This document shows, piece after piece, positions 2,900 to 36,710 of a DNA stretch of 64,000 nt. The translations under genes and the position numbers were made by a program. Below the pieces are notes generated by a model that saw nothing but the letters and a program-made list of their open reading frames with translations, was not told the origin of the DNA and ran no database searches. Origin of the DNA: Bacteroidia bacterium (GTDB lineage Bacteria; Bacteroidota; Bacteroidia; NS11-12g; UBA9320); assembly GCA_020849295.1 (NCBI GenBank), contig JADLGN010000015.1, positions 91,168 to 155,167 of the forward strand, given 5' to 3'. How positions within the stretch are numbered: position 1 is the stretch's first letter; each line of letters starts with the position of its first letter.

Positions 2900-5800
2900 T
2901 TATTTACCTCTTATAAGTGTAACTGTTCCGCTTACAGGGTCATCTTTTCCTTTGCCTCCATTTAGTCCCTGATTTTTTACTTTATAATTGATAATGTAGA
3001 AATAGGTACCTTCTGGACATTCGGCTCCGGTATTTTTCACTTTTCCATTCCATCTGAAGTTTTGATCTTTGCTTTCAAAAACCTTTTCTCCCCAACGGTT
3101 GTAAATAATAATATCGAATTCTTCAAGACCAACTGCGTTTACCCTAAACTCGTCATTTACTCCATCTTTTGGCTCTGGTGTAAATACGTTGTATGGAATA
3201 AATTTAGAAACATACTTGTAGCAAACAGGTTTTACAATTGAATCTCTACAACCGATAGAGTTAATTGCAACAAGTTTAATGTTGTAACATCCTGTATCTG
3301 CCCACTCATAACATGGGTCTTGGTCAGATGAAAATCCGTCAGTCGGGAAGTTTTCAAATGTCCATTCGTATGTTGTTGCTCCAACTGATTTGTTTGTAAA
3401 ACAGAATTTTGGTTTATTGGTCGAATCAATATCAAAGTCTGCTTTAACATCAATAACATTAATTACTTTTTTCACTGTATCAAGACATTTGCGGAATTCT
3501 CCAACTGGTAAATCATAATCCGGTATTAATGTAAGCTTAAATTGTCCAGTCTTATTATAAGTGTGATTTGCAGAGTTTGAAGTTGTGCTTATTGTATCTC
3601 CATCACCAAATCTCCATATATATCTTGTATAAACAGTATCTGTATTAACAGTTGTTAAAGTTGCAGTTGAATTTACACATATTGTATCTTTAGGAGCAAT
3701 ACTGAATTGTGCCGGAGCCTTAGGTTTTACTCTAATAATTCTTTTAAGTTTAATTACCAAATCAGCACTTGTATCAGGATATATAGCAGAACAACGAATA
3801 GATGTTCCTTTTATATTATCATGTTGAGTTAAATAAACTTCGTAAATTCCTTCTTTTATATAGCGATGCCCAACCGATCTTCTTGCATTGTCTGACAAAA
3901 CTTTACCATCGCCAAAATTCCATTCCCATACAGGATTGAAAATAGGGTCAATACTTAAATTATTAAATATTACAGTATCGCCAACACAAACTACTGTGTC
4001 ACTTACAGGATTAAATTTAGGCTGTGGTCCGGCTATGAATAACTTCATACTTGTACTGTCTTCACAACCAAGTTTTGTTTTTACTTTCAGTCTTATTGTA
4101 AACCATCCGTTTTGAGTATAATCATGTGATGGATTTTTCAATTTACTCTTTTGTTTTCCATCACCAAAATCCCATGTGTATTCAATTATATTATCACATG
4201 GTACGCCTTTATCAGCTACACAAGGATCTATCATTACTGATGAATCAAGGAAAGAAACAATGTTTTTGCAGCCAAGAGTCGGGTTCAATATTTTAAAGGC
4301 TGCTTTTACACCTGTTACCCAAACTCTTTGTTTTGCAGTATCTCTACATCCTAAACTGTCTTTCATTGCAATTCTAATATTATATATTCCAGGATCATCA
4401 TAATGCCATCTGAAAGGCGGAACACCTATACCTGTAACATTAAATACATTAGCCGAAATTGAGTCATCGTGTTCGTTAAAATCAATTTTCTTTGTTTCTC
4501 GTTGTGCAAGATATCTTTTTGACTCTTCCCACCATGCCCTCGGATCAAGCCAAATAAAAGGATCTTCATAAGCGTAATATCTTATTTGCTCTTTGAGTTG
4601 AATTTCTGTATTACCATGACAAATTATTGAGTCAGAGAAAGTCCAAATCCAGTCAAATCCTACATCTACTTCTTTATTTTTTGGTTGAATACAGCCTTCG
4701 GTATTTCTCAATGTAAGTGATGGGAAATATCTGTTAGGACGTTTATATACATGGCGATATACATTTGGGGTAACTTTTTTATTACTGTATTTGTTAGGAT
4801 TTTTTTGCTTTAATGTATCAAATCCAATCATAGAACTATCGCGGAAGTGAAGTTTTTGGGAAATTATTGTAGAATCTTTCTTAGTATTATCAGTATATCT
4901 ATACCAAGTTGTCCCTCTTCGGAATGTAAGATTATCTCTGTATGGTGCAACTCCTAAAGTTATCAAATCTCCAAGCCCTGTAGTATCAATACATCCAAAA
5001 CCTGAGCCATTTCCAAAATATAATGGAATTTCGGTAGATGGAATTTCAGTCATTTCTAAACCTAAAGCCTTAAATGCTTTGCTTAAAGCATCACCGGCTC
5101 TTTCCATATTTAATCCTATTGACCATTTTCTTATTATTCCTGTAACAATTGTATCTAAAACATTATCTTTTACACCATCATAATTAATTCTTATAACATA
5201 ATTATATAGCCATTTATCATTTTTATTCCAAACTATATCTTTATCATTCCTTGTTGGACTTGGTCCTTTGTATGGTTTGTAATAAGAGAATCTTTCTTCA
5301 TAATAAGTACCTTCTTTATCATTCCAGTTCCATACAAGTTGTGTTACGCTGTCCATTATTGGATCTGTAAGCAGGAATGAAATAGTATCGCCAACACACA
5401 CGCGTTTCATATCGGCTTCTGGTTGAATTACTGTAAATCTTGAATCTAAATACAGATATCTGAAAGCGTTATGATACCAAGTAGTATCAATACATTCAAT
5501 ACTATCAAGAGGAGCTGCTTTATCTAACCAACGACCATTTCCTATTATTACTCCAACCGTTACCCAACCTGGGTTTTTATTTGTTAAGCTACCAGCGGTA
5601 TATGCCTGTACAAATTTAGTCGGATAAGCACCTGAAAGTTGATAACCCATGTGCCATGGTGGCATACCTGGCAATGGAGGAGGTAAAAATCCGCCATGTG
5701 TAACCCAATTATTTTTGCCACCGGCAGAGTCAAAATTAAATTTAAGCAATCTTTGGGTACAACCCGGTTTTGTTTCCCCTACATCAAACTCCATACCATA

Positions 5801-8413
5801 AGGTGGGCTTGGAGGAGCATAACATTTAATACCTTTAAACTTTAAACCTTTTCCATTTGGTGGTAACAAAGCTAGCGATACATTAGCTGTGGCTTTGCAA
5901 CGAAATGCATGAACTGTGTCTTCGTGGTATAATGTTACAGAATTACATTGTGCATTTTTTAAATAAAAATTTTCTCTGTGAAATGCTGAATCAATATATA
6001 TTCTTGAGCTTTGAATAAATGTATCTCTTCCCCCAATAATTGTATCTATATATACTGTGCTTTTTTGTGCAACAACTAATTTTCCTTTAGTTATAACTAC
6101 TTGTGCAATTGATATTGCAGAATCTCCTTTATTTAGCTGAAACTGATCACCTTTTTTAAGTGTTTTAGTTCCTGACGTAAGAAGATATTTGTTTCCTGTT
6201 GTAATATTTTTAACGAGTATAGATTTTGTAGTATAGAAAGTCCATTTTTCCTCGCTCAATGTTGGCGTATATGTAGCTAAACCTTTTAATTTTGAGGGGA
6301 CTTTCTTTATTCTGTAAAAGCCGTCCATTTTTTCTTTTGTACTTGGTTTTATAGTATCACCTGCATAAATAAATGTAGAATCTTTTGGAACAATTATAAG
6401 TGTATCGTCAGGCACTACAAGAGTATCTACAGGATAATAGTTTATTTTATAACAAAATCTACCGTTTTTACATAGTACTGTTTTTTGTGCCGCTGTAGAA
6501 TAAAACTGCGAATTGTTATAATATTTATAAATATCATCCCATGGTGTGTACCAATGAACAGGTAAGCTATCCATACTAAAGTTACAGTTTAATCCAACGT
6601 TTTTGTTTTTCTTTGTATCTGTTGTACATTTTGGTGCATAATTATCGCCAAAAGTCCATAATCTTATAACATGGTCTTTATGTCTTTGTGTTGGTGGGGG
6701 GAACTTTGAGTTAACTGCAGTTTGGTCGCCAGGCCATTTGAAAACATAATCTTTAACTTTAGTTATTATCACTGTATCTTTACCTGATATTACAGGATTT
6801 ACTACAGGTTTTTTTACCTTTTTACCATTTACAAAATAATAAATACTATCAGCAGTAAGTACAGATTGATAGAATGTTTCAAGTGTATCCTTTTCAAGAT
6901 AAATTCTTGACTTTAATCCCTGCATTACTTTATATGTACCATAAGGATCTATACTGTCTTGTTTTAGTGGAGGTTCATAATATCCAACTTTTCTACCGCT
7001 TAATAACGTAAAATATCTGTTTACGTTTGAACTGTCTTCAAATACAGGATACGGGTCATTATGATAGAATTTAGAATTATTTGGAAAATGGACAGAATCT
7101 CTAATTACACATTGATATTTTTCATCTTCTGGTACTCTGTTAAATGGAATTTCAATTGTAGATCCTGGACCTATTTTTAATATTGGGTTTGATGTACTTG
7201 TGGTTGTAGTAACATCACAAGGACCCACAATTATTCTTATTGAAGCCATCCATGGACCTAAGCCGTAGCTATGTGTTGGTGTCCAAGATTTGTCATCAAA
7301 GTTTGCAGGACCGCTTAGTGGGTCGCCAAAATTCCATAGAAACTTAGCATTTGCTATAGGTCCGTCTTCAAGACTGAATTTTACTTCTGATTCACTTACA
7401 CATGAAGAGTCTGGTTGTATTATTATTTTTGGCTTTAATGTAGAAACAGTAGCAGCCGCACTAAATTTGAATGTTTCGGTACAACCATATTTTGTTGTTA
7501 CTGTCAATGAACCATTATATACATAAGTACCACTTTTTTTACCTGTTGCATCGTATTCATGCACGAAAACACCATTGCCTGTTTTTCCTTTCCACCACTC
7601 TGTATTTGTTACAGAGTCGCCAATAATAATGTTACTTTTTCCTCCCGGATCGCCAAAATCCCATTTGAAAAAAGCTATTTCATTCAATTTTGTAAATGTA
7701 TCTGTCAGGTTTGTAACCGTAGCTGTTGTTTTATTACATTTATGTGGTCCTACAGATGTAAATTTAACACCAATTTTTGGGTAAACTCTTATTAATTTGG
7801 CATAAAATGTTTTAGTTATACATCCATTGTAGTCTTCAGCTTCTATAGTAAGGTCAAAAAATCCACCATTTGGGTCTATTACCGAATGGCATATTGTATC
7901 ACCGCCTTTTGGGTCATTTATTGTGTATAATGCTCCATCGCTGAAAAGGTATTTTATTGAAAGCAATTTACTCCCTTTGCTTGCTTTTGTACTGTCAATA
8001 AAACAAAACTTATTACCCATAAAACACTGAGCAAGCGGAGTAAGTGCTTTGGTTTTTACTTTAGGACTTTCTTTAATTAAAATCATAACAGTATCAGTAC
8101 ATGAAGTTCCTCCCGGGCCTGTACCTTTAAATGTTACAGTGTAAAGTCCTGCTGACGTATATGAGTGAACAGGATCGCGAAAAGCAGTTGTTGTACCAAC
8201 TCCGGTTTTGAAGCCATCTCCAAAATCCCACTCATAAGAATTTAATCCGGGGGCATTGGAGTAAAACTGAATTGGCGAATTTTCGCAATTTGAACTTTTG
8301 ATTTTGTCCCATTTGGGGTCGCAGCCTTGCGAAAAACCATTTTTTGTAATTACAGCAAACAACAGTATTAGTACTGCTTTTGCTAATGTTGAGAATGTAA
8401 ATTTGTGTCTCAT
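2900..8413 (-). CDS. Giant (1837 aa) secreted cell-surface protein with multiple PKD-like repeats and a T9SS type-B (gliding-motility-associated) C-terminal sorting domain. It is a SprB-like adhesin candidate.
   Basis: It has an N-terminal signal peptide. W-x-F-G-D-[GPN] motifs recur (WDFGDG, WDFGDP, WNFGDP, WTFGDN, WRFGDG...). The C-terminus IPYNVFTPEPKDGVNDEF..NRWGEKVF..WNGK matches the type-B CTD consensus (TIGR04131-like). Confidence 0.85.
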   Translation of the reverse strand: MRHKFTFSTLAKAVLILLFAVITKNGFSQGCDPKWDKIKSSNCENSPIQFYSNAPGLNSYEWDFGDGFKTGVGTTTAFRDPVHSYTSAGLYTVTFKGTGPGGTSCTDTVMILIKESPKVKTKALTPLAQCFMGNKFCFIDSTKASKGSKLLSIKYLFSDGALYTINDPKGGDTICHSVIDPNGGFFDLTIEAEDYNGCITKTFYAKLIRVYPKIGVKFTSVGPHKCNKTTATVTNLTDTFTKLNEIAFFKWDFGDPGGKSNIIIGDSVTNTEWWKGKTGNGVFVHEYDATGKKSGTYVYNGSLTVTTKYGCTETFKFSAAATVSTLKPKIIIQPDSSCVSESEVKFSLEDGPIANAKFLWNFGDPLSGPANFDDKSWTPTHSYGLGPWMASIRIIVGPCDVTTTTSTSNPILKIGPGSTIEIPFNRVPEDEKYQCVIRDSVHFPNNSKFYHNDPYPVFEDSSNVNRYFTLLSGRKVGYYEPPLKQDSIDPYGTYKVMQGLKSRIYLEKDTLETFYQSVLTADSIYYFVNGKKVKKPVVNPVISGKDTVIITKVKDYVFKWPGDQTAVNSKFPPPTQRHKDHVIRLWTFGDNYAPKCTTDTKKNKNVGLNCNFSMDSLPVHWYTPWDDIYKYYNNSQFYSTAAQKTVLCKNGRFCYKINYYPVDTLVVPDDTLIIVPKDSTFIYAGDTIKPSTKEKMDGFYRIKKVPSKLKGLATYTPTLSEEKWTFYTTKSILVKNITTGNKYLLTSGTKTLKKGDQFQLNKGDSAISIAQVVITKGKLVVAQKSTVYIDTIIGGRDTFIQSSRIYIDSAFHRENFYLKNAQCNSVTLYHEDTVHAFRCKATANVSLALLPPNGKGLKFKGIKCYAPPSPPYGMEFDVGETKPGCTQRLLKFNFDSAGGKNNWVTHGGFLPPPLPGMPPWHMGYQLSGAYPTKFVQAYTAGSLTNKNPGWVTVGVIIGNGRWLDKAAPLDSIECIDTTWYHNAFRYLYLDSRFTVIQPEADMKRVCVGDTISFLLTDPIMDSVTQLVWNWNDKEGTYYEERFSYYKPYKGPSPTRNDKDIVWNKNDKWLYNYVIRINYDGVKDNVLDTIVTGIIRKWSIGLNMERAGDALSKAFKALGLEMTEIPSTEIPLYFGNGSGFGCIDTTGLGDLITLGVAPYRDNLTFRRGTTWYRYTDNTKKDSTIISQKLHFRDSSMIGFDTLKQKNPNKYSNKKVTPNVYRHVYKRPNRYFPSLTLRNTEGCIQPKNKEVDVGFDWIWTFSDSIICHGNTEIQLKEQIRYYAYEDPFIWLDPRAWWEESKRYLAQRETKKIDFNEHDDSISANVFNVTGIGVPPFRWHYDDPGIYNIRIAMKDSLGCRDTAKQRVWVTGVKAAFKILNPTLGCKNIVSFLDSSVMIDPCVADKGVPCDNIIEYTWDFGDGKQKSKLKNPSHDYTQNGWFTIRLKVKTKLGCEDSTSMKLFIAGPQPKFNPVSDTVVCVGDTVIFNNLSIDPIFNPVWEWNFGDGKVLSDNARRSVGHRYIKEGIYEVYLTQHDNIKGTSIRCSAIYPDTSADLVIKLKRIIRVKPKAPAQFSIAPKDTICVNSTATLTTVNTDTVYTRYIWRFGDGDTISTTSNSANHTYNKTGQFKLTLIPDYDLPVGEFRKCLDTVKKVINVIDVKADFDIDSTNKPKFCFTNKSVGATTYEWTFENFPTDGFSSDQDPCYEWADTGCYNIKLVAINSIGCRDSIVKPVCYKYVSKFIPYNVFTPEPKDGVNDEFRVNAVGLEEFDIIIYNRWGEKVFESKDQNFRWNGKVKNTGAECPEGTYFYIINYKVKNQGLNGGKGKDDPVSGTVTLIRGK

Positions 8414-8496
8414 AATCTTTTTTATTTTTTTAAAAAAGGACTTTTTGTAATAAGTCCGCTATTTTAATATTTAATATTTTAACTTTCAATATTCTT

Positions 8497-9381
8497 TTAA
8501 AATAAATTTAATAATCCTGTTTCAGTTTTTTTAAACCCTGAAATTAATTCATAAATTATTTTGTATGTATAAGCACCTCTTGGGCACATTTCGCCAGTGT
8601 TCTTGTTTTTGCCATTCCAGCAAGTATTTTTATCGTTTGTTTCAAAAATTATTCTGCGATTATTGTCAAAAATTTGAAGTACAAACTTGGTTTCATTTTC
8701 AATTATTATTCTGTAACAATCGTTGTATCCATCAACATCATAAGGTGTAAAAGCATTAGGAATCACTATGTTTTCAGAAGAATATTTACTGTCATTAGTT
8801 GATGTATTATTTTCTTCTTCAGGTTTACTATCATTGTTTTGTATAGTTTCTTTATGATTTTCTATTTTGTTTTTTTGCTCATTAACTATTTTATCATCTT
8901 TATGTTTAGGTTTTTCTGTGTTATTTTTTATTGAAGAATCAACTTTGCTCAGATTATTTTTAGGATTTTCAGATTTATAAATTGAATCTGTGTTTACAGT
9001 TTTTGGGAGTTCAATTGTGGTTCTTAAATTATCAGTAACTGAATTTTCTTTTTCATTGTTTTCAGTTACTGTTGGTTCATTATTGTTTGTTTTTTGTTCA
9101 ACAATATTTATTTTTTTATCTTTATCGGTTGAAGCAAATTCATCTTTATTATTTTTTAAAGCTTCGTAAGTGCCCCAAATTACTGCTCCCGATATTATAA
9201 CTGCAGAAATATATTTTAATGATAATATTTTAAGTAATGTAATTTTTGAAGTAACAGCAGAATATGCTCCAATAGAAGATCCAACTGTTTCCCAAACTCC
9301 GGGAGGCACTGGAATTTGTGCCCCTTCAAGCGATTGCTTGAGCAGAGTGTCGAATTCGTTGAAATTATTATTGTTTTCCAC
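8497..9381 (-). CDS. Membrane protein in anti-sigma position: short cytoplasmic N-terminus, one TM helix, an N/K/E-rich low-complexity region and a T9SS type-B C-terminal domain
   Basis: It lies 9 bp downstream of the ECF sigma gene on the same strand. The TM segment is ISAVIISGAVIWGTY. The C-terminus IPNAFTPYDVDGYNDCYRI...WNGKNKNTGE matches the type-B CTD. Confidence 0.6.
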   Translation of the reverse strand: MENNNNFNEFDTLLKQSLEGAQIPVPPGVWETVGSSIGAYSAVTSKITLLKILSLKYISAVIISGAVIWGTYEALKNNKDEFASTDKDKKINIVEQKTNNNEPTVTENNEKENSVTDNLRTTIELPKTVNTDSIYKSENPKNNLSKVDSSIKNNTEKPKHKDDKIVNEQKNKIENHKETIQNNDSKPEEENNTSTNDSKYSSENIVIPNAFTPYDVDGYNDCYRIIIENETKFVLQIFDNNRRIIFETNDKNTCWNGKNKNTGEMCPRGAYTYKIIYELISGFKKTETGLLNLF

Positions 9382-9390
9382 TGTATTATT

Positions 9391-9954
9391 TTAAAATTTA
9401 TCTTTCAGCATTTTTTGTAAAACTTGCCTTGCTTTAAAAAGCTGCGATTTTGAAGTATTCTCACTTATACCGAGCATTTGTGCAATTTCCTTATGATTGT
9501 ATCCTTCTATAATAAACAAATTTATAACTGTTCGGTATCCTTGTGGCAGTTTTTGTATCAATTCTATAATTTTTCGTGAATCAATACTTGTGATGTGAAA
9601 AGTATCTGATTGCAGTTCATAAGTTTCATCTACATTTACAATATCAGGTTGCCTGTTTTCTTTTCTGATATATTCAAGTGCATGATTGATAAAAATTCTT
9701 TTTAACCAACCTTCAAAAGAACCCTCAAATTTGAACTCACCAAGTTTTGTAAAAACTTTAATAAAACCTTCCTGCAACAAATCTTTTGCTTGTTCTGCAT
9801 TGCCTGAATACCGCATACAGATGGCATACATTGTTGGGGCAAATTTGTCAAATAACGCTTTTTGTGACTTTTGATTTTTTGCAAGGCAACCCTCAATTAG
9901 TATTTTGTTACTTTTATCGGATTGTTGCATATTATTTTTTATTATGTCACTCAA
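9391..9954 (-). CDS. RNA polymerase sigma-70 factor, ECF subfamily
   Basis: A region-2-like segment (LLQEGFIKVF) and a region-4 HTH (EGYNHKEIAQMLGISENTSKSQLFKARQVLQ) are present. The length is 187 aa. Confidence 0.85.
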   Translation of the reverse strand: MSDIIKNNMQQSDKSNKILIEGCLAKNQKSQKALFDKFAPTMYAICMRYSGNAEQAKDLLQEGFIKVFTKLGEFKFEGSFEGWLKRIFINHALEYIRKENRQPDIVNVDETYELQSDTFHITSIDSRKIIELIQKLPQGYRTVINLFIIEGYNHKEIAQMLGISENTSKSQLFKARQVLQKMLKDKF

Positions 9955-9999
9955 CTATGATGTTATTTGTTCAATTCTGGTTGTATGTATTTGAAAAAA

Positions 10000-10500
10000 T
10001 TATTCGGATATTTTCTTTACTCCATATTTTTTTACAAAATATTCGCTAAGCATTTCGGCATAATAGCCTGTACATTCTAAGGCATCTACTACATCATGTT
10101 GATTAATATTGTCAGCCAATTGCTTATATTTTACAGCAAGAACACTGTCTTTCAAGTTAATAATTAAACTTGCTTTGTACAAATGAAAATTAATATGAAG
10201 GAGTTCTTCATAAAACTTAAATTTATTTTCATCATTAGGCAATTTTGTAATAGGTGCTATTACCTGAAATGTTGTATTGTTGTTTTGTTCTACTGTGTAA
10301 TTCCAATCTGTATTGTGTTCAGGAGTCCAAAGGTCAATAAACAAACAAATTGGTCCTCTGAAAATTTGCCACTGTCCGGGTTCTTCGCCACGTATTTCAG
10401 CAGCTTTTACTCCTAATGTTTCTATTGATGATTCAACTATATCTATATATTGTTTTAACATTTTGTTGGTTTTTTTAAAAATTTTTTGCAAAGATAACAA
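10000..10500 (-). CDS. Hypothetical cytoplasmic protein, possibly YbjN-like. The true start is probably the internal Met (MLKQYID).
   Basis: The ORF is about 150 aa after start correction, and it has no signal peptide. No family is assigned. Confidence 0.35.
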   Translation of the reverse strand: MLSLQKIFKKTNKMLKQYIDIVESSIETLGVKAAEIRGEEPGQWQIFRGPICLFIDLWTPEHNTDWNYTVEQNNNTTFQVIAPITKLPNDENKFKFYEELLHINFHLYKASLIINLKDSVLAVKYKQLADNINQHDVVDALECTGYYAEMLSEYFVKKYGVKKISE

Positions 10501-10609: not shown

Positions 10610-12631
10610 TTAGTTTTTTATTATAGTTTTTGAATATATTTTACCATTGCTATCAAAATAAAAAAGATAAATACCTTTTTTTAAATTTTCGCTTGTTATT
10701 TCAGTATTTGTATTAGGCAATATACTTTTTGATAATATAGTTTTACCGCAAATGTCAAGTACTTTTAAATCTGATTTTACAGGTGAATAAATTTGAATTT
10801 TTTCGCAAAACGGATTAGGATAAATTTTTATTTTTTTTTCTAAGTTTTCTTTTACCAAAGTAGTTTTTGCTGCAAAGCAAAATGAATCACTATTTTGTTT
10901 TTTTTCATTGTATCCACTTGCATTAAACCTGTAGCAACCACCGCTAATTATATTTATACTATCGCTGTATTTGTATTTCTGAAACAAAAATTTATTGCTA
11001 AAATTTTCTGTAATATTTTGCCAACGATTAGTTTTTTTATTATATATCTCAAGATTTATCGAGTTTACATTTACTTGCAAGTCACTTTCATATTCAAAGT
11101 AAAATTTACTGTTTTCATTTTGCTTTTTGTTAATAGTATATTTTAAAATAAAAACGTCATCAGATGTGTTCAATGCTCTTAAAGTATCAAAATTATAACG
11201 GTAATATGAAGTTAAATTTTCAGTAATATTTGTTTTTGGAATACCAATAGAAGGGTATTGGCGCATCTGTTGCCACCATTCTGGTTTTGTATTGCTATAA
11301 AAGCTTGCCGGCAATATTATATTATTAAAAGATGCAGTATCAATTTTAGTCCTGTAATTAAAAAGTATTGTATTTCCTTTACCGCTATAGTTACATAAAT
11401 TTCCTACAATTTCATTTGCAATAAAATGAGTATTATCTCCGGCTGCTTCATTCATAAAAACTCCCCAAAGTGTAGCTCGGTTTCTAAAGAATAAATTATT
11501 TGGACCATTAATTCCATGAGAATTGTCAATTACTATATTTCCTACCTGATTTTGTTCAATAAGGTTTGCAAAGGGATAATTGCCATGCAATACTATTTCT
11601 CCGGCTGAGTTTGAAGGTAATAAAGCTTCTGTCCAATATGGATTTTTTGAGTAATTCCCTATGATAATATTTCCATTTGCTCCGCTTTGCAATAGAATAC
11701 TATGTCTTAAATTTTCGAAAATATTGTTTTCAATTCTGCATGATGTTGAAGTATTGCTCAATTCAGTTCCATAAGCTTTGCCACCTCCTCCATAATCTAA
11801 TCCATGATGAATATAGCAATCTCTTACCAAACAATTGTAGCTTTTTGAGAAAGTAATATGCGACATATTTGTATTTATGCTTTCTACGCCTTTTACTTCA
11901 CAATTTGCAGCATATTGAAAGTTGAAATTATTTGTTTGACTGCTTGTTTTATCTTTGCGTTCGATACTGAAAAATCTGAAATTGACATTGTTTATGGGGA
12001 TTATTTTTCTATATCTTACATTGTTTTTTACCTTAAAATCATGTTTAAAATCTCCATATATAAAAACATAATTATTTTCAATTGATTTTACTTTTATTAT
12101 TTGTCCGATTGACTGCATTGCCCAGTCAGAAGTAGCAAAATTTTCAGCATCTATCAATATTTCATAGTATGCTTTATTTTCAAAAACATTTGAATTGCAA
12201 ATGAAATTTTCTGATCTCGCCTGTAAGTCTGATTTTAATTGAATAAAATTATTTTTTTGAGTACTTCTTATTTCAAACAAATTTCCTATTCCTCCATTAT
12301 CAAATATCAATTTAGTTTTATCAGCTCCTTTACCTTCTATTGATACATTTGATTTTAGAAATATTGTTTTTGAAAATTTATAAATTCCTTCGCTTAAAAT
12401 TATTACAGTTTGGCTATCTATATAGCTTTTGTCTATAATTGATTGTAAAAGTATTGAATTGTCGTACTTTCCACTATTATCAAATCCTATGGTTTTCGAT
12501 AAAATTATTTTTTTTGGTAATTCGGATAATGAATTTTCAGAAATATTCCATTTGTATATAATACTGTCAGGGATTTGGCTTTTTAAGCAGACAGTGAAAA
12601 AGATGAATAATATTTGAAAAAATATTTTCAT
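10610..12631 (-). CDS. Secreted right-handed parallel beta-helix (pectin-lyase-fold) protein with a T9SS type-A C-terminal sorting domain
   Basis: It has a signal peptide. The beta-helix repeat block is NIIIGNYS..GEIVLHGN..NIVIDNSHGI. The C-terminus KIYPNPFCEKIQIY...KGIYLFYF..SKTIIKN has the type-A (Por_Secre_tail) pattern. Confidence 0.75.
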   Translation of the reverse strand: MKIFFQILFIFFTVCLKSQIPDSIIYKWNISENSLSELPKKIILSKTIGFDNSGKYDNSILLQSIIDKSYIDSQTVIILSEGIYKFSKTIFLKSNVSIEGKGADKTKLIFDNGGIGNLFEIRSTQKNNFIQLKSDLQARSENFICNSNVFENKAYYEILIDAENFATSDWAMQSIGQIIKVKSIENNYVFIYGDFKHDFKVKNNVRYRKIIPINNVNFRFFSIERKDKTSSQTNNFNFQYAANCEVKGVESINTNMSHITFSKSYNCLVRDCYIHHGLDYGGGGKAYGTELSNTSTSCRIENNIFENLRHSILLQSGANGNIIIGNYSKNPYWTEALLPSNSAGEIVLHGNYPFANLIEQNQVGNIVIDNSHGINGPNNLFFRNRATLWGVFMNEAAGDNTHFIANEIVGNLCNYSGKGNTILFNYRTKIDTASFNNIILPASFYSNTKPEWWQQMRQYPSIGIPKTNITENLTSYYRYNFDTLRALNTSDDVFILKYTINKKQNENSKFYFEYESDLQVNVNSINLEIYNKKTNRWQNITENFSNKFLFQKYKYSDSINIISGGCYRFNASGYNEKKQNSDSFCFAAKTTLVKENLEKKIKIYPNPFCEKIQIYSPVKSDLKVLDICGKTILSKSILPNTNTEITSENLKKGIYLFYFDSNGKIYSKTIIKN

Positions 12632-25563: not shown

Positions 25564-27645
25564 ATGAATATAAAAAAAGCATTATTAGTTCTAATACCAG
25601 TTACGCTTATAGCTACTGGATTTTATTTTAAAAATCAGGAAGCAGGAAAAAGTTTCTTATTACCTTCAATTTTAAAAAATCTTGAATTATACCATTTCAG
25701 TCCGCAAACGATTGATGATAATTTTTCAAAGAAAGTTTTTGATGAGTTTATAAGCGTTTTAGATGCAAACAAACGTTTTTTTACTAAAGATGATATTGAT
25801 AAACTATCTATATATAAAACGAAAATTGATGATTTTGCCAAATCAGGTGAAGATGAATTTTATGATAAAACAATGGAAATTTACGAATCAAGAATTAATC
25901 AATACCAATTATGGTACAGAGAAATTCTGAGTAAACCATTTGAATTTAACACTAATGAGGTTTTTAATTTTGATGATAAGCAACCATGGGCTAAAAATGA
26001 AGTTGAGCTTAAAGATAGATTAAGAAAATATTTAAAATACAATGTAATGTCAAATCTTGCTACAAATCTTGAAATTCAGGAAAATGCAATTCAAAATAAA
26101 GACACAACAATAAAGACCTACTCTTATGATACATTAGAAACCAGAGCAAGAAAAATTGTATTAAAAAATCAGGATGATTTTGTTGCAAGATGGAAAAAAA
26201 TACAGGAAAGTGAAAAAGTAAGTTATTATATTAATTCTGTTACCGCAGTGTTTGATCCTCATACAAACTATTTTCCTCCGGCAGACAAAGAAAATTTTGA
26301 CATAAATATTTCAGGAAGACTAGAAGGAATTGGAGCATCATTGCAGGAAAAAGACGGATATATAAAAGTAGTAAGGATAGTGCCTGGTAGCCCTTCGGCA
26401 TTACAAGGCGAACTTAAAGAAGGAGATATAATTCTTAAAGTAGCACAAGGTGCAAAAGAACCGGTAGATGTAGTAAATATGCCAATGGATGATGCAATAA
26501 AAATGATTCGCGGACCCAAAGGCACCGAAGTAAGACTAACTGTAAAAAAGCCCGATGGTTCTACTAAAGTTATAAAAATAATAAGAGATGTGGTTATATT
26601 AGAAGAAACATTTGCCAAATCAGTAATTTTAGAAGATAATGACCATAAAAAAACAGGTTATATTTATTTGCCTTCTTTTTATACAGATTTGAACGGAGGT
26701 GAAGGCAGAACATGCTGGACAGATGTGAGAAATGAAATAAGAAAGCTAAAAAATAACGGTGCCGAACGCATTGTGTTTGACTTAAGAAATAATGGCGGTG
26801 GATCATTGCAAGATGTTGTGTATATGTCAGGATTATTTATAGAAAATGGTCCAATTGTTCAAGTTAAAACAAGAGATGAAGCCCCAGATATGTTAGAAGA
26901 TTACGACCCATCAGTAGAGTGGGATGGACCGCTTGTAATTATGGTAAATGAGTTTAGTGCATCAGCAAGTGAAATTCTGGCTGCAGCCATGCAAGATTAT
27001 AAACGAGCTGTAATAGTAGGAAGTAAGCAAACTTACGGAAAAGGTACAGTACAGCGATTTGTTGACTTAAATGATAAAATTAGAAGCAAACAGGCATCAG
27101 AGTTTGGCTCTTTAAAAATTACAATACAGAAATTTTACAGAATTAATGGAGGAACAACGCAAATAAAAGGAGTAGAGTCAGATATTAAATTGCCTGATAA
27201 TTTTACCTATTTACAAAGCGGAGAAATAGAACAAGATTATCCTCTGGCATGGGATAAAATTAGTCCGGCAAAATATTTTACAAATAGTAAATACCTATCA
27301 AATCTTTCAACCGTAAAATCGCGCTCTGCTTCAAGAGTAAAAGATAATGAAATATTTACTTTGATTGATGAAAATGCTAAACGCATTAAAAAAGAAGATG
27401 ATAAAAAAAGCATAGTTTTGAATCTGAAACTTTTCATGATAGAAGAAAAGCTGAAAAAAGAACAAAGCAAAAAACTTGATAATTCATTTAAAGAAATAAA
27501 AGATTTGATGATTTCATCATTGATAGAAGATAGAGTTGGACTTGACAAAGACAAGGGAAAAATGGACAGAGCAAACGATTGGTATAAAACTCTAAAGAAA
27601 GATATATATCTGTATGAAGCTTTACAGATTGCTGAAGATTTATAG
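25564..27645 (+). CDS. Carboxy-terminal processing (tail-specific) protease, S41 family
   Basis: It has a PDZ region and the S41 catalytic block DLRNNGGGSLQDVV..ASASEI. The length is 693 aa. Confidence 0.85.
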   Translation: MNIKKALLVLIPVTLIATGFYFKNQEAGKSFLLPSILKNLELYHFSPQTIDDNFSKKVFDEFISVLDANKRFFTKDDIDKLSIYKTKIDDFAKSGEDEFYDKTMEIYESRINQYQLWYREILSKPFEFNTNEVFNFDDKQPWAKNEVELKDRLRKYLKYNVMSNLATNLEIQENAIQNKDTTIKTYSYDTLETRARKIVLKNQDDFVARWKKIQESEKVSYYINSVTAVFDPHTNYFPPADKENFDINISGRLEGIGASLQEKDGYIKVVRIVPGSPSALQGELKEGDIILKVAQGAKEPVDVVNMPMDDAIKMIRGPKGTEVRLTVKKPDGSTKVIKIIRDVVILEETFAKSVILEDNDHKKTGYIYLPSFYTDLNGGEGRTCWTDVRNEIRKLKNNGAERIVFDLRNNGGGSLQDVVYMSGLFIENGPIVQVKTRDEAPDMLEDYDPSVEWDGPLVIMVNEFSASASEILAAAMQDYKRAVIVGSKQTYGKGTVQRFVDLNDKIRSKQASEFGSLKITIQKFYRINGGTTQIKGVESDIKLPDNFTYLQSGEIEQDYPLAWDKISPAKYFTNSKYLSNLSTVKSRSASRVKDNEIFTLIDENAKRIKKEDDKKSIVLNLKLFMIEEKLKKEQSKKLDNSFKEIKDLMISSLIEDRVGLDKDKGKMDRANDWYKTLKKDIYLYEALQIAEDL

Positions 27646-32134: not shown

Positions 32135-35100
32135 ATGAAAAAGTATTACATATTATTATTAGGATTATTGCTCATTGGATGGGCGATACCTGCAGCAGCA
32201 CAAAACCGGACTATTACCGGTAAAGTAACATCAGCTACCGACAAAGAACCAATTCCCGGTGTCTCGGTAGTTGTAAGAGGTACCACAATTGGTACAACTA
32301 CAGACATTAATGGTAAGTACTCAGTTACTGTTTCTTCTTCAAAATCTGTACTAATTTTTTCCTACATTTCAATGAAAACAGTAGAAATTGCTATTGGTAG
32401 CAATACTACAATTGATTTGTCTATGGAAGATGACGGAAAAGGATTAGATGAAGTAGTAGTAACAGCAGTCGCATTAGAAAAATCAGCAAAATCACTTGGT
32501 TACTCTACCCAAAAAGTAAATGGGAAAGAGGTTTCTGAATCAGGTGAGCAAAACGTAATTCAGGGTTTATCAGGAAAAGCAGCCGGAGTTTTTGTTCAAG
32601 GTACAAGCGGTACACCTGGGGCTTCAAGTAAAATCTTGCTTCGCGGTAATGTAACATTTGAAGGAAACAATCAGCCACTTATTGTAATTGACGGGTTGCC
32701 TATTGACAACAGCACATCAAATACAGTAGCGTCTGATTATCCTTTCAACATGAATCTTCAGGGAGTTAATAACTCAAACAGAGGAATTGATATAAATCCT
32801 GACGACATTGAGTCTATCAATATTTTGAAAGGTCCGGCCGCTGCCGCACTTTATGGAGCTCAGGCAGCTAGTGGTGCTATTATTATTACTACCAAAAAAG
32901 CCAGAGCAAAAGGAAAGGGCAAAGGTTTTGGAGTTGTATATTCTACAAGTATTGAACTTCAAAAAGTAAATAAACTTCCTGAATTACAAACCAAATATGG
33001 TCAAGGAAACGGTGGCGGAGCTTTATTAAAAAGCAAACTTACCGGAAAATTAGACTCTGTTGTTGAACAAGGTAAATACAGTCCATCTGCTGTAAATAGC
33101 TGGGGTCCAATTATACCTACTGACAAGGCTTATGATAATATGGAAGAATTCTTTAAACGTGGAGAAGTTTATAATAACAGCATTACATTAAATGCATTTA
33201 ATGAAAAATCTTCACTGCGTTTGTCTATGGCAAATTTGAAACAAAGCGGTATTATTCCAAATTCAGATTATAAGAGAAATACTATAACTGTAAATGCAGA
33301 CCATAAAATAAGCGATAAGTTTAGTTTTGGAACAGCTTTCAGTTATGTAAATTCAGGAGGTACTTTAGTTCAAAACGGAAGTAATCTTGCAGGTGTTATG
33401 CTCGGTCTTACCCGTACTCCCACAGATTATAGACTTGACGACCCAACAAGTACAGGCGAAAATGGCTGGACAAATGCGGATGGTTCACAAAGACAGTGGT
33501 ATCCATTATATGATAATCCACACTGGAGTGTAAGAAACAATCCTTATACTACTGATGTAAACCGTATGTATGGAAATATTAATTTCAAAGCAACTCCATT
33601 TACATTTATGGACTTAACATATCGTCTTGGAACAGATGTATATACTGACAAACGTGTTTCAATATTTTCTATTGGCTCAAACCAACCTGACAATGCACCA
33701 GGTGGTGAAATCAATCAGAACATTCAAACATACAGATATGTTTATCAAGATGTTATTGCTACTTTCAAAAGAAGTCTTACTGATGATATAGTTGGAAGCT
33801 TGGCATTGGGAAGCAATTTACAATATGAAAGAAGTGAAGACCAGTTTTTAAGAGGAAGAGACCTTACAATTCCAAATTATTATAATCTGGCAAATGCATC
33901 AAATTTGTATGCAAACGGTTCTTATGGAATACTTAAAAAATCAGGTATTTTCGGTGATTTGAATCTTAGTTATAAAGAGTATTTGTTTTTAAATGTTACC
34001 GGACGTCAGGACAGATGGTCATCATTTAATAAAACTATTCTATACCCTTCTACTTCACTTGCATTTATTTTTTCAGATTTCGTAAAGCAAAAATGGCTTA
34101 CATTTGGTAAATTACGTATTGCTTATGCAAAAGCAGGAAAAGGACCAGGAGCATATCGTACACAAAATTACTATGCAAAACCAAGCTTTACTGATGGATT
34201 TACTTCAGGACTTGGATTTCCATATTTATCACAAAACGGATTTGGAATTAGTAACACTTTAAATGATCCAAATATTAAACCTGAAACTACTTCATCAACA
34301 GAAATAGGACTTGATATTAGATTTTTTGAATCAAGATTGAGATTTGATATAACATCTTACAATCAACAATCAAAAAACATCATTCTTTCATTACCAATTG
34401 CTCCATCTTCAGGATTTAGAGCACTTTATACAAATTCTGGTGAAATGGAAAATAAAGGTATCGAAATTGTGGCAACAGGCAACCCATATAAAAACAAAAA
34501 TTTTAATTGGGATATAAGTTTGAACTTTAACAGAAATAAAAATAAAGTTAAAAAACTTGGTAATGGTGTTGAAGAGTTAGCCCCAGAAGCTGCTTTCAGT
34601 TCAAATCAAGCTTATGCAATTGTTGGAGAGCCATTTGGTGTATTATATGGTACAAAATGGTTGAGAAATGACCAAGGTCAGCTTTTAATAAAATCAAATG
34701 GTTTGCCGGCGGTTGACCCACAAAAAGGCAACATAGGAAGTCCATATCCAGACTGGATGATGGGCTTAAGAAATACTTTTACATATAAAGGAGTAAGACT
34801 TACAGGCTTATTAGATATTAGAGAAGGTGGAGTTATATGGAACGGTACTTATGCACGATTAAACAGAATGGGCAGAACACAGGAATCAGCAGAACAAAGA
34901 AATGGATACTACATTATTAAAGGTGTAAAACAAAGCGACGGCACTGATAACGATATACCGGTATCTGCATCTGCTTATTGGCAAACATATCAAGGCGACG
35001 GAGGTTCTTATGCGTCAGAAAATGCTATGCAAGATGCATCTTGGGTTAGATTGAGAGAAATTGGTATTTCTTACAATTTGAAGGTAAAACAAATTGAAAA

Positions 35101-35278
35101 ATACATTAAATCAATTGATTTAGGAATAGTAGGTAAAAATTTATGGCTAAGTACAGAATACAAAGGTGTTGATCCTGAGACAAGTTTGACAGGTGCAGGT
35201 TCTAACATCGGAGGATTTGATTACTTTAACAATCCGGGTTTGAAATCTTGGATTTTCAGTCTTAAAGCAAACTTTTAA
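32135..35278 (+). CDS. SusC/RagA-family TonB-dependent outer-membrane transporter
   Basis: There is a signal peptide and a carboxypeptidase-regulatory-like N-terminal domain (TITGKVTS..PIPGVSVVVRGTT..TDINGKYS). A TonB plug region and a 1047-aa barrel follow. The protein ends in a C-terminal F. Confidence 0.9.
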   Translation: MKKYYILLLGLLLIGWAIPAAAQNRTITGKVTSATDKEPIPGVSVVVRGTTIGTTTDINGKYSVTVSSSKSVLIFSYISMKTVEIAIGSNTTIDLSMEDDGKGLDEVVVTAVALEKSAKSLGYSTQKVNGKEVSESGEQNVIQGLSGKAAGVFVQGTSGTPGASSKILLRGNVTFEGNNQPLIVIDGLPIDNSTSNTVASDYPFNMNLQGVNNSNRGIDINPDDIESINILKGPAAAALYGAQAASGAIIITTKKARAKGKGKGFGVVYSTSIELQKVNKLPELQTKYGQGNGGGALLKSKLTGKLDSVVEQGKYSPSAVNSWGPIIPTDKAYDNMEEFFKRGEVYNNSITLNAFNEKSSLRLSMANLKQSGIIPNSDYKRNTITVNADHKISDKFSFGTAFSYVNSGGTLVQNGSNLAGVMLGLTRTPTDYRLDDPTSTGENGWTNADGSQRQWYPLYDNPHWSVRNNPYTTDVNRMYGNINFKATPFTFMDLTYRLGTDVYTDKRVSIFSIGSNQPDNAPGGEINQNIQTYRYVYQDVIATFKRSLTDDIVGSLALGSNLQYERSEDQFLRGRDLTIPNYYNLANASNLYANGSYGILKKSGIFGDLNLSYKEYLFLNVTGRQDRWSSFNKTILYPSTSLAFIFSDFVKQKWLTFGKLRIAYAKAGKGPGAYRTQNYYAKPSFTDGFTSGLGFPYLSQNGFGISNTLNDPNIKPETTSSTEIGLDIRFFESRLRFDITSYNQQSKNIILSLPIAPSSGFRALYTNSGEMENKGIEIVATGNPYKNKNFNWDISLNFNRNKNKVKKLGNGVEELAPEAAFSSNQAYAIVGEPFGVLYGTKWLRNDQGQLLIKSNGLPAVDPQKGNIGSPYPDWMMGLRNTFTYKGVRLTGLLDIREGGVIWNGTYARLNRMGRTQESAEQRNGYYIIKGVKQSDGTDNDIPVSASAYWQTYQGDGGSYASENAMQDASWVRLREIGISYNLKVKQIEKYIKSIDLGIVGKNLWLSTEYKGVDPETSLTGAGSNIGGFDYFNNPGLKSWIFSLKANF

Positions 35279-35297
35279 TTAATAGGAGGACAAAATC

Positions 35298-36710
35298 ATG
35301 AAAAAATTATTTATAATATTAACATTATCATTACTTGTAATAACTCAAGGATGTAAAAAATTTACGGATGGAGATAAAATTTCTCCAAATTCTCCAAGTA
35401 CAGTAACTCCTGCTTTATTGCTATCAAATTGTGAGTTGGCATTATTTGCTGCTTATGGAGGAAATCTGGCAAGAACTACTTCTATTTTTACTCAGCAAAG
35501 TTCTGGTAATACTGACCAGGCTTTTATTTATGAAAAATACGGTATGGTAGAAGGAGATTATGATAACGAGTGGCAAACACTTTATTCAAGCGGTTTGATT
35601 AATACCAAAAAACTTATTTCAAGAGCAGGTACAGCAAATCCACGCTATACTGGAATAGCAAAGGTATTACAGGTTATGATGATTGGTGCAGCTACTGATC
35701 TTTGGGGAGATGTACCATATAGCCAGGCTTGCAAAGGCGATGATATGACAGAAGCATCTTTAAAACCTGCTTACGACAAGCAAGAAGATGTTATCAAAGC
35801 TATGCAAGCATTGCTTACTGAAGCAATTGCTGAATTAGGACAGGCTGATGATAAAAATATTATTCTGCCCGGAGCAGACGATTATATTTTTGGAGGCGAC
35901 AAAGATAAGTGGATAAGAACAGCATGGATGCTAAAAGCACGTTATGAAATGAGACTTAGCAAAAAAAGTTCTACAGCATCACAAAATACACTTACTGCCC
36001 TTACAGCAGCTTATGCAGCAGGCTTAGCAAGTAGTGATGATGATTGCAATTTGATTTTTGGGACTAATGCAAATGAGTATAATCAATGGTATGCATTCTG
36101 CAAAGTAGAAAGAGAAGGATATATAAGAATGGGTGCAAAACTTGTAAATATGATGAAAGCTATAAATGACCCACGTTTGCCAATGTACTGCGCTTTGAGC
36201 GATACAACAGAATATTTGGGAACTCCTGCAGGTGAAGCAGAAATGATACCTTATGCAGGCAAAGTATCAACAATAGGCACATATTATGCATCTCCAAATT
36301 CTGTTTTACCAATGATTACTTTTGTAGAGGCAAAGTTTCTTGAAGCAGAAGCTAAATTAGGTACTGATAAAGACGGAGCAGCAAAAGCATACAATGCTGC
36401 CGTTATTGAACACATAACAAAGGTAACAGGAACAGCCCCCGATGCAGCTTATGTAACTGCAAATGCTTCTGAAAATGCAGGCAGTATAACTCTTGAAAAA
36501 ATTATTAATCAAAAATATATTGCATTATTTACCCAGATAGAAGCATATAATGACTGGCGCCGTACAGGTTTCCCAACAATAACTAAAGCTACCGGTGCTA
36601 CTTCTGATATTCCTCGCAGATTGCCTAATGTACTTGAAGAAAGACAGTATAATCCTAATGCAACCATAGTTTCTGACATGTCAGTTCCTGTATGGTGGGA
36701 TAAAAACTAA
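35298..36710 (+). CDS. SusD/RagB-family nutrient-binding outer-membrane lipoprotein
   Basis: It has a lipoprotein signal (LVITQGCKK). It lies 20 bp after the SusC-like gene, is about 470 aa, and is TPR-like helical. Confidence 0.8.
   Translation: MKKLFIILTLSLLVITQGCKKFTDGDKISPNSPSTVTPALLLSNCELALFAAYGGNLARTTSIFTQQSSGNTDQAFIYEKYGMVEGDYDNEWQTLYSSGLINTKKLISRAGTANPRYTGIAKVLQVMMIGAATDLWGDVPYSQACKGDDMTEASLKPAYDKQEDVIKAMQALLTEAIAELGQADDKNIILPGADDYIFGGDKDKWIRTAWMLKARYEMRLSKKSSTASQNTLTALTAAYAAGLASSDDDCNLIFGTNANEYNQWYAFCKVEREGYIRMGAKLVNMMKAINDPRLPMYCALSDTTEYLGTPAGEAEMIPYAGKVSTIGTYYASPNSVLPMITFVEAKFLEAEAKLGTDKDGAAKAYNAAVIEHITKVTGTAPDAAYVTANASENAGSITLEKIINQKYIALFTQIEAYNDWRRTGFPTITKATGATSDIPRRLPNVLEERQYNPNATIVSDMSVPVWWDKN

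Follow-up and report, generated by a model that had tools for sequence, protein, structure and literature searches.

A conserved extracytoplasmic function sigma factor cassette of Bacteroidota in which the putative membrane anti-sigma factor ends in a type IX secretion sorting domain

A 64-kb stretch of a Bacteroidia contig (JADLGN010000015.1), referred to here as the window, encodes an extracytoplasmic function (ECF) sigma factor and, immediately downstream, a 294-residue protein that ends in a type-B type IX secretion system (T9SS) sorting domain. We call this second protein the partner and its sorting domain the CTD (C-terminal domain). The two genes make up a real and conserved, apparently undescribed form of ECF/anti-sigma signalling with a putative connection to the T9SS; no description of a CHU_C domain on a protein in the anti-sigma position, or of the cassette in which the pair lies, was found in the searchable literature, whose incomplete coverage makes this absence of evidence only. 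From its sequence and the position of its gene, the partner is probably the anti-sigma factor of the adjacent sigma factor. The fuller model, in which a membrane anti-sigma factor with a periplasmic type-B CTD couples expression of the sigma factor and of a giant cargo protein to the T9SS, seems to us an evenly balanced proposition.

The cassette genes all lie on the minus strand of the window, in the order p153 (10000..10461), ECF sigma factor (9391..9930, 179 residues), partner (8497..9381) and a 1,837-residue giant protein (2900..8413). The sigma factor was called with Pfam and NCBIfam hidden Markov models (HMMs), scoring 55.7 bits with Sigma70_r2 (residues 34-101), 57.6 bits with Sigma70_r4_2 (residues 127-177) and 103 bits with TIGR02937. 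It has regions sigma-2 and sigma-4 only and is about 180 residues long, as is usual for ECF (group 4) sigma factors, and SigW, RpoE and other ECF sigma factors are its nearest structures in the PDB. It falls under the cut-off of all the specific NCBIfam subfamilies, for example reaching 84.9 bits with sigma_PG0214, for which the cut-off is 130. The open reading frame (ORF) extends as far as a TTG at 9954 (9391..9954), but the true start is most likely the ATG at 9930, since homologues are 178-184 residues long and a conserved ECF promoter motif ends at 9959. The partner gene starts with a GTG exactly 9 nt beyond the sigma stop codon, at the place given for it in an earlier, sequence-only reading of this DNA.

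Residues 1-45 of the partner (9247..9381), with the pattern FDxxLKQSLExxxxPVPxGVWExVGSSIG, make up a segment that is predicted to be cytoplasmic and putatively binds the sigma factor; we call it the N-module. Next comes a single hydrophobic helix, LKILSLKYISAVIISGAVIWGTY (about residues 50-72; 9166..9234), with a Kyte-Doolittle maximum of 1.79 over 19 residues and invariant lysines on its N-terminal side; from its hydropathy it is predicted to be an inner-membrane anchor that leaves the N-terminus inside. Residues 73-205 (8767..9165) form a low-complexity linker rich in N, K, E and T, predicted from composition to be a periplasmic tether; the 125 residues that follow the helix (76-200) are 19% N, 17% K and 12% E. 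The CTD occupies residues 206-291 of 294 (8509..8766), where it matches positions 2-84 of the 86 in the CHU_C profile (PF13585; E = 1.9e-12, 47.6 bits, cut-off 27) and passes TIGR04131 marginally, by 0.7 bits (35.7 bits, cut-off 35). Both histidine and cysteine are absent from residues 1-49, and there is therefore no HxxxCxxC motif. The architecture described in the sequence-only reading, namely a short N-terminus lacking the zinc-finger motif of anti-sigma factors, one transmembrane helix, a low-complexity segment and a type-B sorting domain, was thus recovered in full, the last clearly by CHU_C and barely by TIGR04131; the start codon of the sigma gene and the GTG of the partner are all that had to be refined.

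The same plan is seen throughout the family. All of the unique cassette-encoded partners (51/51) have exactly one hydrophobic segment, which starts at residues 41-67, and none further on. The distance from helix to CTD is bimodal, at 121-145 or 236-273 residues with a minimum of 121 (52 unique proteins), and the partners with the long spacing contain an additional immunoglobulin (Ig)/PKD-like domain. Beyond the CTD there are only 0-8 residues in 52 unique family members, the extreme C-terminal placement that is expected of a type-B sorting domain. It might be suspected, from the GTG start codon and the margin of 0.7 bits with TIGR04131, that the ORF is spurious or the CTD match a weak chance resemblance. 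Against this stand the CHU_C E-value, 13 full-length homologues that are 38-100% identical and all carry CHU_C (13/13), 76 representative clusters with a shared architecture, and synteny that is kept in about 75 loci. The HMM scores, and an architecture and gene order that recur unchanged in about 75 independent loci, exclude chance, and we regard an artefact as exceedingly improbable.

The earlier observation concerned the pair, and it is clear that a four-gene cassette surrounding the pair is strictly conserved. Loci were gathered by a genome scan anchored on the N-module with a narrower alignment, which gave 8 genome loci, all in metagenome-assembled genomes (MAGs), with 6 further loci usable, and by a metagenome scan anchored independently on p153, which gave 67; for each gene, only loci with enough DNA for that gene were counted. 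In all of the 70-odd loci with enough DNA the order is p153, ECF sigma factor, partner and a PKD/CHU_C giant of ~1,600-2,050 residues. The contigs of close homologues show this order, with a PKD/CHU_C protein of 1,837-1,925 residues, despite differing flanking genes, and all 6 of the usable N-module-anchored loci (Bacteroidia, Chitinophaga and Flavobacteriales MAGs) follow it as far as the contig runs, with p153 present in 5/5 whose contig extends far enough upstream. The sigma gene follows p153 in 72/72 loci, and p153 lies upstream of the sigma gene in 74/75, the single exception being a contig that ends before that position. A protein with the N-module follows the sigma factor in 61/61 loci, and the CTD is found in 54/56 complete partner copies, the two exceptions both ending within 30 nt of a contig end; the pairing, whose conservation in related genomes the sequence-only reading had left to be checked, holds. 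A homologue of the giant lies directly downstream of the partner in 51 of the 52 loci with room for it. In related loci the gap between sigma and partner genes is -28 to +8 nt, mostly -8, -4, -1 or +3, and that between partner and giant genes is mostly 1-6 nt; in the clade of the window this second gap is 83-84 nt (83 nt in the window itself).

The intergenic sequences suggest how the cassette might be transcribed. The spacer between p153 and the sigma gene contains ACAACC-N16-CATC (9959..9984), a candidate ECF-type (-35/-10) autoregulatory promoter. The pattern [GA]CAAC[CT]-N16-C[AT]TC is present at exact spacing in 70/72 p153-sigma intergenic regions, while the spacer sequences themselves diverge; its end lies 15-42 nt ahead of the ATG of the sigma gene, and in the background it turns up at 0.8% per 100 nt. 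Across the window there is 1 match, against 0.16 expected. This conserved motif, GCAACC-N16-CATC, suggests an ECF-type promoter, given its AAC-containing -35 and short -10 form, and the sigma, partner and giant genes would accordingly be autoregulated positively. A second copy ahead of the giant gene was sought, and there is none in the window. The p153 gene is preceded by TATCTTTG (10489..10496, minus strand), a box of the form TAnnTTTG that starts 35 nt upstream of the p153 start codon and is conserved in the alignment; such a box occurs 12-33 nt before the p153 ATG in 58/59 unique upstream regions, against a background of 8% per 120 nt. We read it as a promoter, taking TAnnTTTG to be the established housekeeping -7 box of Bacteroidota. 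In nearly all loci the box stands only 12-35 nt before the ATG (10459..10496 on the minus strand of the window), and thus very short or absent 5' leaders for p153 are implied.

The part of the partner that would act in the cytoplasm is as well conserved as the part that would act outside. In the alignment of homologues, residues 1-75 and the CTD are conserved and the sequence of the linker is not; within the N-module, L14, Q16, S17, L18, V25, P26, G28, W30, G34, S35 and G38 are invariant among close homologues, and the module is kept across clades even where linker and CTD have diverged to 30-40% identity. A profile built from the first 79 residues alone, to which the CTD therefore made no contribution, was searched against 1.84 billion representative proteins (E <= 0.001) and retrieved 98 of them, with CHU_C at the end in 76/98, OMP_b-brl_2 in its place in at least 4, and PKD domains also present in 9. 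This retrieval, together with the repeated fusion to CHU_C or OMP_b-brl_2, indicates that the N-module is a unit in its own right, and by sequence comparison it is preferentially joined, via one hydrophobic helix, to domains that appear to be directed to the outer membrane. A word-indexed search of 5.8 billion sequences with a 66-sequence N-module alignment produced 380 candidates and none at E <= 0.001, the profile being too short.

Tandem copies (2-5) of a motif of ~30 residues, FDxxFKxxLxxAxxPVPxGVWExV, are found at the N-terminus of other Bacteroidota proteins, ending in OMP_b-brl_2 (PF13568) in P0046, P0052 and P0106 and in CHU_C in P0058, P0104, P0054 and P0073. The joining of a cytoplasmic-looking repeat to an outer-membrane barrel is topologically odd in its own right. 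With this motif a previously unannotated module, predicted to be cytoplasmic, is defined, and its repeated joining, via one membrane helix, to CHU_C or an outer-membrane barrel hints that trans-envelope regulators may be a broader class in Bacteroidota.

A T9SS sorting domain is ordinarily a mark of cargo, and the sequence-only reading had considered that the partner might be cargo co-regulated by the sigma factor rather than its regulator. In the broader form of this idea the partner is no anti-sigma factor at all; it would accompany the giant as an accessory protein or co-cargo and simply be co-transcribed with the sigma factor. It might be anchored in the inner membrane and escort the giant to the T9SS, or be cleaved, secreted and attached to the surface, and the sigma factor would be regulated otherwise, for instance by p153. 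The HMM matches are those of a bona fide secretion signal, the partner matches no anti-sigma family, and the long-form members with an extra Ig/PKD-like domain resemble small cargo proteins. Inspection of the sequence, however, revealed no cleavable Sec signal peptide of the kind that T9SS cargo carries: the ~49 leading residues are hydrophilic and conserved, and no AxA-type site follows the helix. A cleavable signal peptide in which the hydrophobic segment follows a long n-region was also considered; the conserved 45-50 residues of that region and the missing AxA site speak against it. A hydrophilic module of ~50 residues precedes the only helix in all members (51/51), it is as conserved as the CTD and more so than the linker, and across clades it outlasts both. 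Further, the partner gene overlaps or abuts the sigma gene, and start-stop overlaps of this kind are typical of sigma/anti-sigma pairs. Finally, in P. gingivalis an engineered PorA tethered in the inner membrane is not exported and yet signals (PMC12152298). We therefore disfavour mere co-regulated cargo, and accessory or co-cargo status as a whole appears unlikely.

We prefer the other suggestion of the sequence-only reading, with which the data agree: the CTD would serve in the periplasm, either to bind a partner or for regulated proteolysis. The ~45-residue N-module would keep the sigma factor inactive in the cytoplasm, the helix would fix the partner in the inner membrane, and a tether of at least 121 residues would present the type-B CTD in the periplasm within reach of the outer-membrane T9SS translocon or of a PorP/SprF-like receptor. 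Engagement of the CTD, or alternatively failed engagement, would act on the anti-sigma factor's conformation or stability, probably via regulated proteolysis, and the sigma factor would be released. Free sigma factor would then fire the GCAACC-N16-CATC promoter and so drive the sigma, anti-sigma and giant cargo genes together, and in this way the output of a ~200-kDa cargo could be matched to T9SS capacity.

Precedent for this scheme comes from Porphyromonas gingivalis, where binding of the PorA CTD to PorY, a sensor kinase, in the periplasm turns on the PorXY-SigP cascade (PMC7712824, PMC12152298), and where PorA whose signal-peptidase site has been removed stays fixed in the inner membrane, is not exported and still signals (PMC12152298). 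PorP/SprF-like outer-membrane barrels are bound by type-B CTDs, which the T9SS recognises (PMC9143113). That the PorA CTD signals via PorY, and does so even from the inner membrane, makes the scheme plausible. Its most specific form, put forward tentatively, is a T9SS-gated secretion checkpoint in which the T9SS or a PorP-like receptor would capture or pull the free CTD and p153 would switch partners on the cytoplasmic side; we think it more apt to be wrong than right. If true, it would be the first case of a sigma/anti-sigma pair under direct T9SS gating, and the equivalent for this secretion system of FlgM or ExsE.

The p153 protein (153 residues, ATG start, predicted to be cytoplasmic) has no Pfam match even at E = 10 and no sequence match in the PDB, and by sequence it belongs neither to Pfam YbjN (PF10722) nor to the chaperone families of the type III secretion system (T3SS). 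An AlphaFold2 model built from 17 sequences (predicted local distance difference test, pLDDT, 87.6; predicted template modelling score, pTM, 0.83) has the topology alpha-beta3-alpha-beta2-alpha. Foldseek comparison of this model to the PDB returned 2plg, ExsC (3kxy, the ExsC-ExsE complex), SicP, SigE, SycE, CesT, YbjN and AmyR, with E-values of 1.5e-6 to about 2e-3, TM scores of 0.6-0.8 and a probability of 1.00. As modelled, this small acidic cytoplasmic protein therefore has the fold of T3SS class I chaperones and YbjN, and an unannotated 153-residue family gains a predicted fold. Typical ligands of this fold are peptide segments in an extended form, and ExsC and CesT are partner-switching regulators that tie transcription to secretion. 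Expressed from its own housekeeping-type promoter, p153 would probably bind the extended N-module or the sigma factor as a modulator, as ExsC does. The same resemblance, which extends to CesT, YbjN and AmyR, also lends something to the idea that p153 could itself regulate the sigma factor while the partner is an accessory of the giant.

To our knowledge, how expression of T9SS cargo is matched to secretion capacity is largely unknown beyond the PorXY-SigP-PorA system of Porphyromonas. The cassette is a compact and phylogenetically widespread candidate for such coupling, bringing together in an operon-sized unit a sigma factor, a promoter, a signal-bearing membrane partner, a cargo protein and a chaperone-fold modulator.

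It could also be that the partner is an anti-sigma factor but that its CHU_C domain is a generic periplasmic beta-sandwich sensor, with no part for the T9SS in the signal; the ligand might then be the giant protein itself (feedback from its accumulation in the periplasm), a component of the cell envelope, or an external ligand. Consistent with this, the partner CTDs form a diverged group of their own, with identities of 26-43% between clades and of 29-41% to the CTDs of the giant proteins, which among the different clades compared are 55-78% identical. Within the close clade of 294-residue partners the CTD has two invariant cysteines, Cys254 (8616..8618, minus strand; NDC...) and Cys222 (8712..8714; ...NTCW), which may be joined in a disulfide peculiar to that clade; both are missing from the CTD of the giant and from the aligned partner CTDs of other clades. 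No T9SS component gene is linked to the cassette in the loci checked, nor any PorP/SprF-like gene, and the CTD of PorA binds a sensor kinase and is to that extent more than a secretion signal. Yet the partner CTD passes both curated type-B models, with a match that spans 83 of 86 profile positions, and like functional secretion signals it invariably stands at the extreme C-terminus. The one target gene whose linkage is invariable codes for a type-B cargo, and the alternative C-terminal fusion to the N-module is an outer-membrane barrel, from which the destination would be the outer membrane. A generic sensor seems to us improbable, and coupling to the T9SS remains the preferred reading of the CTD.

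Several observations weigh against the model as a whole. No anti-sigma domain model of Pfam or NCBIfam matches the partner at E <= 0.1 to 10. Anti-sigma factors of class I, or zinc-binding anti-sigma (ZAS) type, have an HxxxCxxC motif in an N-terminal helical domain of ~80-90 residues that is recognised by zf-HC2/RskA-type models; the partner lacks the motif, its cytoplasmic part is only ~45-50 residues, and the N-module (~45 residues) is too short for a class I domain. With no model matched and so short a module, the case for sigma binding is therefore one of gene position and architecture. A single-sequence AlphaFold2 model of a sigma/partner fusion, with X at the stop codon, reached a pLDDT of 46, too low for an interface to be judged. 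The TIGR04131 cut-off is exceeded by a narrow margin, and the beta-sandwich of CHU_C could bind something unrelated to the T9SS. No PorP/SprF-like gene is present in or beside the cassette as a candidate receptor for the CTD, no PorP_SprF match having been found among the cassette neighbours (window, L001, L002, L003 and the P0013 contig) or 10 further ORFs of the window; such an adjacent cognate gene is frequent for type-B cargo, though not obligatory. All loci come from MAGs or metagenomes. Lastly, a hairpin, GGACTT-N8-AAGTCC followed by T6 (8432..8457, minus strand), lies between the partner and giant genes and resembles a terminator or attenuator, so that co-transcription in the clade of the window is perhaps only partial. 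L001 conserves it and L003 has a weaker version, while clades with a partner-giant gap of 1-6 nt lack it; in the clade of the window it may govern how much regulator transcript there is relative to cargo transcript.

Comparison with known systems shows both what is familiar in the pair and what is not; functionally, its closest likeness would be to transmembrane ECF anti-sigma factors and to cell-surface signalling of the FecR type. Single-pass ECF anti-sigma factors of the RseA/RsiW type are removed by regulated proteolysis, and those of the CnrY type have short class II anti-sigma domains. As in both, the partner gene is directly downstream of a sigma gene that is probably autoregulated, which it overlaps or abuts, and the product has a short N-terminus predicted to be cytoplasmic, one membrane helix and a putative extracytoplasmic C-terminal sensor part. 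Unlike them, the partner matches no anti-sigma model, lacks the zinc motif and has a cytoplasmic part of ~45 residues; unlike RseA and RsiW, its sensor domain would be a T9SS type-B sorting domain. In the FlgM/sigma-28 and ExsE-ExsC-ExsD-ExsA systems a regulator with a secretion signal links transcription of the substrates to the competence of the secretion machine. The secretion-coupled logic proposed here is like that of both, and the predicted fold of p153 is that of ExsC, but the secretion system is a different one, there is no homology beyond the chaperone fold, and p153 lies below the Pfam YbjN model. The partner, if membrane-anchored as predicted, cannot simply be exported.

In the FecI/FecR/FecA system and in SusC-linked pairs of Bacteroidota the periplasmic C-terminus of an anti-sigma factor meets an outer-membrane beta-barrel and the target genes are adjacent, an arrangement that the proposed model resembles; the counterpart of FecA would here likely be a PorP/SprF-like barrel of the FadL family or the SprA translocon (PMC9143113). 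The differences are that the partner has no FecR match, that neither a FecR domain nor a TonB-dependent receptor or transducer is encoded within the cassette, and that the outer-membrane partner is not encoded nearby. The PorA-PorY/PorX-SigP cascade (PMC7712824, PMC12152298) shares with our model the use of a T9SS CTD as a periplasmic signal upstream of an ECF sigma factor, and it is compatible with tethering in the inner membrane. PorA, though, is a true secreted cargo with a type-A CTD that acts via a two-component system on T9SS component genes, whereas here the CTD is of type B and part of what would be the membrane-anchored partner of the sigma factor itself, with a cargo gene as the linked target. 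As in the type-B cargo proteins SprB and PG1035 (PMC9143113), the CHU_C/TIGR04131 domain is at the very C-terminal end of the partner; canonical cargo of this type has a cleavable Sec signal peptide and often an adjacent cognate porP/sprF-like gene, and the partner has neither. Family members are deposited publicly as 'gliding motility-associated C-terminal domain-containing protein' or 'hypothetical protein'. The first label is a likely annotation error, which hides a probable regulatory role and would miscount partners as secreted cargo in predicted T9SS secretomes.

The giant, the last gene product of the cassette, has a Sec signal peptide (MRHKFTFSTLAKAVLILLFAVITKNGFSQG), PKD domains at both ends, an unassigned central region and a type-B CTD at residues 1741-1813 (2975..3193, minus strand); it scores 156.6 bits with PKD_4, 66.1 bits with CHU_C and 36.3 bits with TIGR04131. 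The organism has other T9SS cargo, as genes with a type-A CTD (Por_Secre_tail) are present at 10610..12631 (-) and 60492..62744 (+). The first of these encodes a 673-residue protein that is annotated as pectate-lyase-like in L001; its gene adjoins the cassette on the upstream side in the window, L001 and L002, and not in other clades.

In many marine loci (L026-L064) a further PKD/CHU_C protein, of ~710-870 residues, is encoded on the same strand ~1.8-5 kb before p153, for example at L047:308-2782 and L057:3633-6188. It was considered as a part of the cassette and rejected, as unrelated genes lie between (amidohydrolase, NUDIX, TonB_C, sortilin/BNR) and it is absent elsewhere; it looks like lineage-specific synteny outside the module. 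The remainder of the window looks like an ordinary Bacteroidia chromosome, with nothing that points to a mobile element around the cassette; it includes a pair of genes for proteins of 1,047 and 470 residues, a tail-specific protease (S41), an M2 peptidase and LptC (32135..36710, 25564..27645 and 36802..38625, all on the plus strand).

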